From: Eledone cirrhosa
Lineage: Eukaryota
Length of the DNA: 64,000 nucleotides
Direction of reading: 5' to 3'
NCBI GenBank assembly: GCA_964016885.1
Contig: OZ024743.1
Coordinates: 148,924,001-148,988,000, forward strand
In this document: positions 50,433 through 55,931 of the stretch, piece by piece
How the letters are laid out: each line of letters begins with the position of its first letter
Position numbering within the stretch: position 1 is the stretch's first letter
The notes under the pieces: generated by a model
The model's input: only the letters and a program-made list of their open reading frames with translations
Told to the model about the DNA's origin: nothing
The model's database searches: none
Translations under genes and position numbers: made by a program

Positions 50433-50700
50433 TATATATATATGTATGTATATATTTATATATATATATATATATATACAATTAAGTTAAAAATGTACAT
50501 CCACATATGTATACTGAAATACTAGTATGCATATGAATACACACACGTATACATATGTAGATGTACCGAGTTTTTCACTGGTCACTTTACTGTGAGTGTC
50601 CAGCTATTCTGTATGTAAACACACAGACAAACCGGTTTTTAGAGTCATACTGGTTTTTGAGGAAACACCTTTCCTCTATTCTCCAGAAAACCAGACAAGG

Positions 50701-50745
50701 AATATTGAACTAGTTTCGATGTTGTTACATCTCATCAGCAATATT
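50701..50745 (-). ncRNA. Type I hammerhead ribozyme
   Basis: aatattg-CTGATGA-gatgt aaca acatc-GAAAC-ta-GTT-caatatt. Confidence 0.9.
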
Positions 50746-51166
50746 TACCTATCTTCCGGCCTTTCTAGAGAATCGTAAAAGCACATATCGTTATATACTT
50801 TTTCTATGAAAATTAGTAGTGGGCAGACTAATTTGCATAGAGCGTGAGTACGTACCGGTTCAACGGAGACGATAAAAACAAATAACGAAACGAAATTAAA
50901 TTTCGTTTCGTTTGTAACTCACTTTTGTATGACTGACGCTTAAACAATTAAGTTTAAAATGTACATCCACATATGTATACTGAAATACTAGTATGCATAT
51001 GAATACACACACGTATACATATGTAGATGTACCGAGTTTTTCACTGGTCACTTTACTGTGAGTGTCCAGCTATTCTGTATGTAAACACACAGACAAACCG
51101 GTTTTTAGAGTCATACTGGTTTTTGAGGAAACACCTTTCCTCTATTCTCCAGAAAACCAGACAAGG

Positions 51167-51211
51167 AATATTGAACTAGTTTCGATGTTGTTACATCTCA
51201 TCAGCAATATT
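51167..51211 (-). ncRNA. Type I hammerhead ribozyme
   Basis: Identical to 50701-50745. Confidence 0.9.
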
Positions 51212-51854
51212 TACCTATCTTCCGGCCTTTCTAGAGAATCGTAAAAGCACATATCGTTATATACTTTTTCTATGAAAATTAGTAGTGGGCAGACTAATTT
51301 GCATAGAGCGTGAGTACGTACCGGTTCAACGGAGACGATAAAAACAAATAACGAAACGAAATTAAATTTCGTTTCGTTTGTAACTCACTTTTGTATGACT
51401 GACGCTTAAACAATTAAGTTAGAAGTGTACATCCACATATGTATACTGAAATACTAGTATGCATATAAATACACACACGTATACATATGTAGATGTACCG
51501 AGTTTTTCACTGGGCACTTTACATCGAAACTAGTCCAATATTCCTGTCTGGCTTTCTGGTGAAAAGAGGAAAGGTGTTTCCTCAAAAACCAGTATGACTC
51601 TAAAAACCGGTTTGTCTGTGTGTTTACATACAGAATAGCTGGACACTCACAGTAAAGTGACCAGTGAAAAACTCGATACATCTACATATGTATACGTGTG
51701 TGTATTCATATGCATACTAGTATTTCAGTATACATATGTGGATGTACACTTCTAACTTAATTGTTTAAGCGTCAGTCATACAAAAGTGAGTTACAAACGA
51801 AACGAAATTTAATTTCGTTTCGTTATTTGTTTTTATCGTCTCCGTTGAACCGGT

Positions 51855-51918
51855 ACGTACTCACGCTCTATGCAAATTAGTCTGCCCACTACTAATTTTC
51901 ATAGAAAAAGTATATAAC
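51855..51918 (+). promoter_or_regulatory. Putative internal promoter: octamer ATGCAAAT plus TATA-like box upstream of the HHR
   Basis: ATGCAAATTAG at 51870 and AAAGTATATA at 51907; same module and spacing at 55596 / 55634 in the 427-bp family. Confidence 0.45.
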
Positions 51919-51962
51919 GATATGTGCTTTTACGATTCTCTAGAAAGGCCGGAAGATAGGTA

Positions 51963-52007
51963 AATATTGCTGATGAGATGTAACAACATCGAAACTAGTT
52001 CAATATT
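51963..52007 (+). ncRNA. Type I hammerhead ribozyme
   Basis: Same motif on the + strand, perfect stems I and II. Confidence 0.9.
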
Positions 52008-52812
52008 CCTTGTCTGGTTTTCTGGAGAATAGAGGAAAGGTGTTTCCTCAAAAACCAGTATGACTCTAAAAACCGGTTTGTCTGTGTGTTTACATACAGA
52101 ATAGCTGGACACTCACAGTAAAGTGACCAGTGAAAACTCAGTACATCTACATATGTATACGTGTGTGTATTCATATGCATACTAGTATTTCAGTATACAT
52201 ATGTGGATGTACATTTTTAACTTAATTGTTTAAGCGTCAGTCATACAAAAGTGAGTTACAAACGAAACGAAATTTAATTTCGTTTCGTTATTTGTTTTTA
52301 TATATATATATATATATATATATATATATATACATATGTATATATATATATATACATATATATATATATATATATATATATATATATATATATATATATA
52401 TATATATGTATATGTTTGTGTGTGTGTGTGTGTGTGTATATATATATATATATACATATACATATATATATATATATATATATATACATATACATATATA
52501 TATATACATATATATATACATATATATATATATATATATATATATATATATATATGTGTGTGTGTGCGTGTATATATATATATATTTATATATATATATA
52601 CATATATAGTATTAGTTATACTATTTATGGTTATGTAAACACAAAACCTTATGCAGTTATAAGTATTTTACTTACACCCTAAATAGTGGTAGGCAGTAAT
52701 GTATTACTACCTTATTACCAGTAAGTTAAGTAGCTCAATGTAAAAACATCAGATGATTTACAGAGCAGTTATATGAAATATAAGAATCAAAGAACTGTTC
52801 AAAACATTATTG

Positions 52813-52859
52813 TGCTTACAGCTGTTTCCTCTAAACCGAGGTTTGGATTCTTCGGAGCA
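52813..52859 (-). ncRNA. Hammerhead-like motif with U4C
   Basis: tgct-CCGAAGA-..aaac ctcg gttt..-GAAAC-agct-GTA-agca. Confidence 0.45.
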
Positions 52860-53371
52860 ATTTATTAATGCATGGACAGTTATATGACCTCCTTTTCAGC
52901 CGAGAGCCATACCGATACATATTCAAACATTGTGGGTCAACATTCATTACAGAATTTAGAGTGGCAGTACACACTTCGAAATTACATTTATATTAAGAGG
53001 TACAATCAAAAATCAAAAATACCGGTTAACATACACATATATATATATATATATATATAAATATATATATATATATACATATATATATAGAGAGAGAGAA
53101 TTAGTATATATACCAACATATGTATACTGATGTATACCCATGCTAGCAAATATATATGTTATGTCTTAGTATATAATAACACCCACTCCTCACTGATTAA
53201 CCTCAGTGTCACGTGATTGATTTTTTAGAATTTGCCACTGACCAAGTAGGCAGTTAATGTTTTCAGTGCCCTGGAATTTAGTCCCCGCTAGCTTTATTCC
53301 ATCCACTGAATTATTATTTTTATATGGGTTCCTAGTGTCCGCGCATTGCCAGGGAACTTAGTTGAGAATAG

Positions 53372-53431
53372 ACTTCCTGATGACGTTGCGTAACTATATT
53401 TATTCCCTTACAGAAACTAATTAGTTGGAGT
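53372..53431 (+). ncRNA. Hammerhead ribozyme with weak stem II
   Basis: acttc-CTGATGA-..-GAAAC-taatta-GTT-ggagt; palindromic AACTAATTAGTT. Confidence 0.55.
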
Positions 53432-54607
53432 GAAAATTTTAGTAAGTAAGTTGATTTTTAATTTTTAAAATTTTCTTATTTTACGTCTTTCATATATATA
53501 TATATATATATATTTATATATATGTATGTGTGTGTGTGTGTATATATATATATATATGTATATATATATATATATATTTATATATATATATATATATATA
53601 CATATATATATATATATATATATATATATATACGTACATACATATATATATATACATACATATATATATATATATATATACATACATGTACATACATATA
53701 TATATGTATATATATATACATACATATATATATATAAATATATATTTAAGTATATATATATATATGTATATATATATGTATATATATATATATATGTATA
53801 TATATATATGTGTATGTATATATATATGTACTATATATATGTATATATATATTCATCTATATATATATATGTATATATATATGTACATATATATTTATGT
53901 ATATATATATGTATATATATAAATATATATGTATATATATATATAAATATATATATATGCAAAGTTTTATTTAAATTGTTGGGTTACAACGAGTAAATAT
54001 TTATAACTGATATAAAAGCACTCAACAAGTATTTGGAGTATATTTACGATATTAAAAATGGAAACTATATTTATAAAACCATATTTATTTCCTTATATAT
54101 ATTTCAGGGATATCATATTAAAAATATGTTATGCCTTCTTCAGACAAAATACAATATAAACAGTCTTATAAATAGATAGATTTGACATACCTTTCAACTT
54201 CATCTTCCATTTAAAAAGTTGATTTGGTAGTGAAAAATGTTAGGGACAGTTATAAAAAGAAAGAAAGAAAGAAAGAAAGAAAGAAAGAAAGAAAGAAAGA
54301 AAGAAAGAAAAACGAAGAAAAAGAAGAAATGCATGCAACTAAATAGAGAAAGATAGATATAGAGAGATAGATAGAGAGAGGAATTCATGTAAAGAAACAG
54401 AGAGAGATATAGAGAGAGAGGAAAAAACACAGAGGGAGATAGATAGAGAGAGAGAGAGAGAGGGAGAGAGAGAGAAAAGAGAGAGAGAAAAAAAAAATAG
54501 AGAGAGATAGATATAGATAGAGATAGAGAGAAAGAAAATAGGTAGTTGGGCACCAGTTGAATGACGTATCAATATATATATATATATACATATATATACA
54601 TATATAT

Positions 54608-55931
54608 AAATGGAAAAATTGAAATTTCATTTCTCACTCTTAGTACGGCTGATACTTAAATATAAGTATGTATACGTACATACATATATGTATACAAACG
54701 TACAGTAGTATGTATATACATACATACATACATGCACACATATATATATGTACGTATGGGGTTACCGAACATTTATTATAATGTCCGGTTTGTTTGTAAA
54801 CAAACAGCCCGAATTAAGCCGTACAGTGTTCGGCAACCATCGTTGCCCTTTTGTTCAACACAGACAAAGGAACGATGAACAAGTTTCTAGCATATTAGCT
54901 GGCATCAGCACCGTAAACCTTCCTGTCAGTTGATTGAACGTTTGAAAGTATTTACTTTCCTGATGCATATTAACGGCTGAGCAGCCTAATTTGCATATCG
55001 AGTGAGTTAGTCGGCCGGGCGTACCGAAAACAATAAATGGAAAAAATGAAATTTCAATTCTCACTCTTAATACGGCTGATACTTAAATATAAGTATGTAT
55101 ACGTACATACATATATGTATACATATATGTATACATACATATATGTACAGTAGTATGTATATACATACATGCACACATATATATATGTACGATAATATGC
55201 ATAAGGAAAGTATATACTTTCAAACATTCAATCGACTGACAGGAAGGTATTCGGTGCTGATGACAGCTAATAAGCTAGAAACTACTTCATTGTTCCTTTG
55301 TCAGTGTTGAACAAAAGGGCAACGATGGTTGCCAAACACTGTACGGCTTAATTCGGGCTGTTTGTTTACAAACAGCCCGAACATTATAATAAGTGTTCAG
55401 TAAACCCATACGTACATATATATATATATGTGTGCATGTATGTATGTATATACATACTACTGTACGTCTGTATACATATATGTATGTACGTATACATAGT
55501 TATATTTAAGTATCAGCCGTACTAAGTGTGAGAAATGAAATTTCAATTTTTCCATTTATTGTTTTCGGTACGCCTGGCTAACTAACTCACTCGATATGCA
55601 AATTAGGCTGCTCAGCCGTGAATATGCATAGGGAAAGTATATACTTTCAAACGTTCAATCGATTGACACGAAGGTATACGGTGCTGATGACAGCTAATAA
55701 GCTAGAAACTAGTTTATCGTTCCTTTGTCAGTGTTGAACAAAAGGGCCACGCTGGTTGCCGAACACTGTACGGCTTAATTCGGGCTGTTTGTTTACAAAC
55801 AAACCGAACATTATAATAAATGTTCGGTAAATCCATACGTACATATATATATCTGTGGGCATGTATGTATGTATATACATACTACTGTACGTTTGTATAC
55901 ATATATGTATGTACGTATACATACTTATATT
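54608..55931. mobile_element. Non-coding 427-bp tandem HHR repeat, head-to-head arrays joined at ~55190
   Basis: Period of 427 (54608/55035; HHR cores at 55257/55684); degenerate - strand HHR at 54872-54914. Confidence 0.85.
55678..55720 (+). ncRNA. Type I hammerhead ribozyme
   Basis: acggtg-CTGATGA-c agct aata agct a-GAAAC-ta-GTT-tatcgt. Confidence 0.75.

Follow-up and report, generated by a model that had tools for sequence, protein, structure and literature searches.

We analysed a window of 64,000 nt from Eledone cirrhosa (contig OZ024743.1; all positions are those of the whole window) that contains two insertions built from hammerhead ribozyme-bearing repeats, family A and then family B. 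Between them lie ~2.3 kb of unrelated microsatellite and unique DNA (52302-54608). Each insertion consists of two arms, in opposite orientation and back to back, with (TA)n on both flanks. The left arm of A (50479..51522, minus strand) holds ~2.2 units and its outer end is a 'short' point in (TA)n (unit position ~229-233). The right arm (51521..52301, plus strand) holds ~1.7 units, opens with a 3′ hammerhead half whose triplet is GUC, and ends at a 'long' point (unit position 302, GTTTTTAT followed by ATAT). The 69-74 nt from short to long end form the A tail (52229..52301, plus strand), with a AACGAAACGAAAT hairpin and a T5 run. In B, the left arm (54606..55189, minus strand; ~1.3 units) ends at the long point (unit position 272, CCATTTAT followed by ATAT) and the right arm (55194..55931, plus strand; ~1.7 units) at the short point (unit position 219). 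Inside each unit the order is 12-mer, TATA, hammerhead, structured body, and tail.

Family A is a 466-bp tandem (50478-51522; 2.2 copies, 98% in TRF) and family B a 427-bp direct repeat (55194-55430/55621-55857, 92%). This bears out the 466- and 427-bp non-coding repeats described in an initial annotation of this DNA, as well as its extra hairpin at 50884, which is present in four copies. The same annotation spoke of tandem repeats; the units do repeat, but as two opposed arms with (TA)n flanks rather than as a simple array. A find_repeats-type scan of the window was dominated by microsatellites.

Aligned with each other, the A and B monomers match along their entire length (score 326 versus 96 ± 11 for 100 shuffles), with ~65% identity in BLAST. 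This alignment identifies A and B, at the level of sequence, as diverged homologues from end to end. Their bodies had been taken as otherwise diverged, but they are not unrelated. CGGTACG is out of register between A and B, and one of six aligned B units has it. Monomer RNAs fold far below shuffles (z of −9.9 for A and −7.1 for B) into a similar branched form. Across 10 units, 24 of 85 pairs show changes on both sides and 97% of cells are paired, against 0 of 500 shuffles, with the structure taken from the same alignment and the rows representing two main clades.

Both families are dispersed, multi-copy and, in the sampled loci, unattached to a reverse transcriptase (RT) open reading frame (ORF). 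The 12-mer with TATA at the A/B spacing gave 26,915 genome matches (15 for a reversed-pattern control), among them a 30-unit A array. BLAST-type searches returned 137 A and 4586 B candidates, of which the best 40 were scored for each. At longer spacing, the pattern gave 524 matches versus nine for the control and uncovered additional families, C and D, which carry the same 12-mer and different hammerheads. One C body and B are distant relatives (52 versus 27 ± 5 for shuffles), the other C body gave 11/200 shuffles against B, and the D body showed no similarity to A or B in alignment. Unit lengths are 427-502 nt, and non-coding tandem units of a few hundred base pairs are what retrozymes have. 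RNA-editing scars were considered and rejected: private variants of 24 A insertions have no A>G excess (A>G versus T>C was 6 versus 4 fixed and 10 versus 12 in single units, a small sample). A closed 465-nt A contig in three of four contig sets of unknown kind was left unused as evidence because a tandem array gives the same.

Hammerheads and their predicted dimers

Hammerhead cores within the feature lie at 50738(-), 51204(-), 51970(+), 54908(-), 55257(+), and 55684(+). Every unit has a type I hammerhead, but two of the three B copies in the window are degenerate. The A hammerhead at 50700..50745 (minus strand) has stem I AAUAUUG/CAAUAUU, stem II GAUGU/ACAUC, a palindromic stem III ACUAGU, and the triplet GUU. 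Its partner in a predicted double hammerhead lies at 51166..51211 (minus strand), and for the third A copy (51963..52007, plus strand) the predicted cut falls between 52000 and 52001. The sole B copy in the window with an intact ACUAGU/GUU is at 55679..55719 (plus strand), with a C.A base pair in stem II; at 55257, ACUACU replaces ACUAGU, and the hammerhead at 54908 is degenerate. One hammerhead per unit with a shared stem III had been claimed. The cores are present, but AACTAGTT occurs in only one of the three window B hammerheads; the other two have AACTACTT, and CTGATGC/AACTTGTT. The three A cores match Rfam HH9 at E 7.4e-7, which is below gathering, and a scan of the window at the gathering threshold gave 0 Rfam matches. 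MicroRNA matches at the Rfam E-value level were rejected as TA-rich hairpins.

The cleavage triplet is GUU, GUC or GUA (GUH) in 157 of 160 hammerhead contexts and GUG in none, although these contexts are not independent. Stem II shows a compensatory change, from GAUGU/ACAUC to GUUGU/ACAAC. The palindromic stem III, ACUAGU, carries a loop of 2 nt, and hammerheads of this kind are described as needing a second copy (PMC4209133). One natural A dimer, taken from the window, has the double hammerhead as its minimum free energy (MFE) structure, with an inter-unit stem III probability of 0.71. Of 10 A dimers, nine already have the inter-unit stem III in their MFE structure and eight lie ≤1.8 kcal from the double hammerhead. 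The A and B hammerheads are predicted to act only as dimers.

Several observations weigh against self-cleavage. The double hammerhead is within ≤2.5 kcal for only 7 of 17 B dimers, and positions 10.1-11.1 of B pair Watson-Crick in only 3 of 71 contexts, never as G-C. With C.A or U.U standing at this first pair of stem II in 67 of the 71, activity of the B hammerhead is doubtful. A Xenopus study also reports eight of nine retrozyme dimers without cleavage (Li, Clavereau and Pollet 2026, 10.64898/2026.07.22.740005).

Insertion ends and Penelope-like elements

We compared ends across 20 of 30 A loci (overlaps dropped) and 30 B loci. Every one of the 25 visible A 3′ ends falls within unit positions 227-233 or 300-302, and (TA)n follows. 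Where both arms are visible, seven of eight A loci pair a long with a short end and one has two short ends; a 31-unit A array without an ORF ends at 233/302. B ends cluster at 218-221 (23 ends) and 272-273 (15 ends). A clean 272/219-221 pair occurs in nine B loci, two short or near-short ends in three, and the remaining loci are one-armed or disrupted. Both the long and the short end points of A have homologous counterparts in B, and the long ends align at the step from TTTAT to CGT. A third B insertion, truncated and two-armed, lies outside the studied feature (45466..45976), with (TA)n flanks and its long end at 45466.

The 3′ ends are fixed, 5′ ends are scattered, and the insertions are dispersed in (TA)n. 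Penelope-like elements (PLEs) are known for inverted 5′-truncated copies, a tail confined to one end, and insertion into (TA)n (PMC8557442). A and B insertions have the same inverted 5′-truncated arm, one-sided tail and microsatellite target, a footprint that makes PLE-driven insertion highly likely. A satellite amplified at the DNA level, by unequal crossover or hairpin-mediated transposition and with a dead ribozyme, would account for the long homogeneous arrays and the B stem II mismatch. However, dispersal with this pattern of ends, together with covariation over the unit, speaks against such a satellite, which is disfavoured by the fixed strand-specific ends and is very improbable. We instead regard A and B as very likely non-LTR retrozymes (LTR, long terminal repeat). 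This identity, with a dimer-type hammerhead, had been proposed at the outset and gains support from the predicted double hammerhead and the fixed ends.

In three A insertions, private variants are common to all units and both arms, which fits one template. The A insertion in the window tells against this simple picture, as each arm has an innermost unit unlike its outer ones (215C/218C). These unit-level differences are common to both arms; therefore, the template is not always a single homogeneous monomer circle, and the innermost-unit variants suggest a mixed template. Innermost variants absent from outer units (GUC triplet, 215C/218C) are located at 51521-51560 and 51420-51425/51750-51755.

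The units might alternatively be ordinary PLE pseudo-LTRs, or 3′ pieces of an autonomous PLE yet to be found. Their PLE-type ends are compatible with this, and in the Xenopus study, 24 of 57 retrozyme families are transposable element (TE)-like, with 21 of 22 TEs being PLEs (10.64898/2026.07.22.740005). Only a small share of the more than 26,000 units was inspected. However, a tblastn search with window PLE peptides on 138 loci gave eight matches, and at none of the seven loci inspected among them was A or B the PLE's own terminal repeat. Arrays of up to 31 units lack an ORF and have no similarity to the dominant PLE. In the sampled loci, and in comparison with one Hydra-type and one window PLE, A and B do not have the character of pseudo-LTRs, and we consider that explanation improbable. 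PLE mobilisation without attachment to a PLE ORF, as first suggested, is supported by the two-ended (TA)n footprint.

A candidate partner was found via an endonuclease fragment adjoining A (58,340 candidates, best 150 scored). It is a young intact PLE of 717 amino acids from the ATG, in 3.5-kb tandems, that belongs to the Hydra clade by its motifs: RWR, DKT, a CxCX5C linker, a C-terminal GIY-YIG, and (TA)n. In 23 of 30 loci this PLE likewise stops at two points of its own ahead of (TA)n, separated by 80 nt. At C1:437.2 Mb, it forms 3531-bp tandems and its hammerhead has a U3-A8-type core and a long stem III; ~140-bp 3′ pieces of this PLE are very common beside (TA)n. A (TA)n-flanked insertion at C1:404.299 Mb runs from the PLE long end through inverted PLE and PLE endonuclease/3′ untranslated region (UTR) to 4.4 A units and the A short end, and the endonuclease/3′ UTR is fused to the A units without TA between. 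Template switching in one event is the simplest reading of this chimera; an insertion with deletion is possible. Endonuclease-bearing (EN+) PLEs of the Hydra clade are described, like A and B, with an inverted 5′-truncated arm, a one-ended tail, a (TA)n target, and a hammerhead close to the 3′ end, whereas A and B are non-coding, have no sequence in common with them, and have tails of 51-74 rather than 30-40 nt (PMC8557442). Some points count against this partnership: A and B show no similarity to the Hydra-type PLE (BLAST E>2), a single such chimera was seen, and (TA)n also follows the ends of other PLE families. On balance, we lean slightly towards a Hydra-clade PLE as the partner of A and B.

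Other PLEs surround these insertions. A 5′-truncated, frameshifted, C-rich PLE (47156-50430, plus strand), which we take to be Neptune-like from its motif, has RT, a CxxC linker, GIY-YIG and its own hammerhead core at 50312. Its end and array A share one (TA)n tract, and its terminal bases look similar to the long end of B. As a source of A it was ruled out by the (TA)n separation, its different hammerhead and the lack of an octamer. Short PLE 3′ pieces near 16 other A/B loci were rejected as fusions, being by position separate insertions in shared TA tracts. At C1:18.488-18.491 Mb, an AT-rich Hydra-like PLE contains a B array in antisense orientation with no TA at its flanks; this junction is found again nearby in inverted form, as though the PLE had carried B along inside it. 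A two-armed fragment of another Hydra-like PLE lies at 3680-4870, with an endonuclease piece at 3916-4296 (minus strand) and a degenerate hammerhead in its terminal repeat. A Pfam search with five ORF pieces from the window returned no families, and the PLE labels rest on motifs.

A promoter word shared with host U6 genes

The 12-mer TATGCAAATTAG lies in A at 51869..51880 (plus strand), where it is the 5′ arm of an RNA hairpin, and at 50828-50839(-) and 51294-51305(-). In B it lies at 55595..55606 (plus strand) and 54986-54997(-); downstream, counted from its ATG, TCAG follows after 16 nt and TATA after 42 nt. From the 'octamer' of the initial annotation to AAAGTATATA are 37 nt in A and 38 nt in B, and the hammerhead core follows 53 and 40 nt beyond, so the stated order (TATA 37-38 nt past the octamer, then a core after ~40-55 nt) is correct. 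The TATA 10-mer AAAGTATATA is indeed shared by the window units, but family-wide it is a minority A variant. The TATA-like box of A (51907..51916, plus strand) reads GTATATA where most of the family has GCATATA; over 24 A insertions, the majority base is T in three and C in 21.

In the host, three distinct U6 loci, the top U6atac match, and MRP have the 12-mer (at most one mismatch) at −76 to −78 and TATA at −30. By contrast, the best 12-mer match in the U1/U2/U4 promoters scored has 4-5 mismatches (10/10); 9 of these 10 have TCAG at −56 to −58, 27 nt before TATA. This distribution marks the 'octamer', in our reading of the promoters, as a host U6-class promoter word, and the promoter first suggested gains real support from the match. 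Host U1/U2/U4 promoters have in common the words AATTA (−90), TCAGT (−57), and TATA (−30). The RNase P RNA gene has TCAGT and groups with them, which suggests transcription by RNA polymerase II (Pol II). B and C differ by 5 in their 12-mer spacing, yet both have TCAG 26 nt ahead of TATA, and this TCAG-TATA (a single event) hints at a U1-like core. In the copies of A, B, C and D scored for this Pol II comparison, AATTA is absent at the host distance of ~33 nt above TCAGT, and the D copy lacks TCAG.

Other observations weigh against a working promoter. On the host side, the RNase P RNA gene lacks the 12-mer, which is also missing from three of the seven distinct regions upstream of U6 and from seven of the eight U6atac matches (presumed pseudogenes). 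From ATG to TATA, all five word-carrying host genes measure 46-48, against a distance of 43 for 83/89 A contexts and 42 for 61/75 B contexts, and U6 spacing is reported to be tightly conserved in insects (PMC1761439). D has 41-44, and only C, with 47 in 7 of 13, is at the host spacing. A lacks TCAG and mostly has GCATATA, and so fits neither host class beyond the 12-mer; TATGCAAATTGG occurs in 2 of 24 A insertions. Among 29 B copies, deviations in the 12-mer are 1.7% versus 3.2% for the rest of the unit (P = 0.07), and 45 of 301 windows are conserved as well or better. TATA deviates no less than the rest (6/203 versus 274/8445, P = 0.5). Both 12-mer and TATA lie inside RNA hairpins. The 'conserved octamer/TATA module' first described was therefore overstated, while its 12-mer stands as a host word. 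A top conservation rank for the 12-mer in a multiple alignment was dropped as circular, the units having been cut at the 12-mer; in an unselected pairwise alignment, the 12-mer is the longest identical A-B run (12 nt). We judge a functional internal promoter to be only a little more probable than a silent one.

The word could instead be a relic of a Pol III gene flank, or be kept as an RNA hairpin or POU site, with arrays passively transcribed by host read-through. Its hairpin context, its weak within-family conservation, and the altered spacing and GCATATA of A would all suit a relic. However, the 5′ arm holds two host variants (TTAG, TGAG) and the 3′ partner arm varies while the 12-mer stays; four families with different ribozymes carry the word, and its position is fixed just upstream of the ribozyme. 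We consider a relic rather unlikely.

Equally, 12-mer and TATA could be a working U6-type Pol III promoter, most RNAs stopping at T5/T6 near the long end and rare read-through supplying the multimers that are copied. Among host genes scored, the word is confined to U6/U6atac/MRP, C is at host spacing, the longest T run coincides with the long end in A and precedes it by 8-9 nt in B, and schistosome hammerhead short interspersed elements (SINEs) are described as Pol III transcribed (PMC6765202). Yet the spacing is 4-5 bp short in A, B and D. T5+ runs occur in 42 of 42 A units and T6+ runs in 16 of 21 B units, so the transcript needed is not free of T4+ runs, yet arms routinely exceed one unit including the promoter. 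We regard this alternative as unlikely.

Proposed cycle, known relatives and neighbouring repeats

Our preferred reading, which we hold to be probable, is that A and B are retrozymes copied by a PLE RT from RNA started at the internal promoter. Transcription would start ~30 nt below TATA, 10-30 nt before the ribozyme, and would have to traverse at least one further unit. An snRNA-type promoter read through by Pol II seems narrowly preferable to leaky Pol III because of the T5-T6 runs in the units and the spacing, which is not U6-like. Neighbouring hammerheads would pair via the ACUAGU palindrome and cut after GUU/GUC/GUA, freeing unit-length RNA in which a single hammerhead is predicted to be unable to fold alone. 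Monomers may be circularised, as in other animals. The PLE endonuclease would then nick (TA)n, and the RT, priming on the RNA at two homologous TTTA(T) positions, would write the two arms.

A bolder version is speculative and unlikely as a whole: a superfamily of more than 26,000 units running on a promoter of host parts (the U6-class word and a U1-like TCAG-TATA core), in which shortened spacing switches Pol III to read-through Pol II, and each tandem would be a self-transcribing, self-cutting RNA replicon inserted into (TA)n by a Hydra-clade PLE. In the literature seen, both the transcription of animal retrozymes and the inserting enzyme are proposed rather than shown (PMC7229834, 10.64898/2026.07.22.740005). 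Handles here are a host word with a measurable spacing change over four families, two fixed priming points, and an intact Hydra-type PLE with an A chimera. The 12-mer would, in addition, provide a U6 promoter word of cephalopod type that could serve in the expression of small RNAs.

Newt satellite 2 contains an octamer, and the Pol III promoter of Schistosoma Sm-alpha elements consists of tRNA-like boxes. As far as described, newt satellite 2 is, like A and B, a hammerhead tandem with an internal snRNA-type promoter and a dimer-acting ribozyme (PMC2220036, PMC6765202); its Pol II snRNA promoter is reported to have been shown experimentally (PMC2220036), whereas the A/B word is known from its match to host U6-class genes. 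The Sm-alpha hammerhead SINEs likewise have a promoter ahead of the hammerhead, such that the upstream unit drives the next and tandems are needed, but that promoter is a Pol III promoter of another type, with no U6-class word in the account given (PMC6765202).

Non-LTR retrozymes (Cervera and de la Pena 2020, PMC7229834; 10.64898/2026.07.22.740005) are closest: non-coding tandems with one type I hammerhead per unit, low GC, highly self-paired RNA, and co-occurrence with PLEs. Their reported units are 170-400 nt versus 427-502 nt here. The accessible text of these papers describes no promoter and has no match to 'octamer', whereas A and B carry a promoter word. Many Xenopus families have pseudo-LTR homology, and none was found for A and B. 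The two-armed insertions with fixed long and short ends, together with the PLE chimera, provide sequence evidence for the route that those papers propose. Our literature search found no paper on octopus retrozymes or on a U6-class word in retrozymes, but supplements were unread and subscription papers mostly lay outside it, so absence is not established; the main text of PMC13282606 has no match to 'ribozyme'.

The window also holds a two-armed hammerhead element (46147-46650; cores 46468 + and 46328 -) that starts at (TA)n, has a relative at 22579, is unrelated to A and B, and has no octamer. Further hammerhead-like cores at 44464(-), 54143(-), 56101(-), 40407(-) and 13041(-) are probably ends of other PLE-type elements. 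ORF pieces at 6193-7301 (minus strand) presumably derive from a DNA transposase, and those at 15987-16833 (plus strand) from a LINE RT. A perfect 171-bp tandem (six copies) and related 48-bp tandems occupy 25909-26934, 36997-37436 and 17308-17577.

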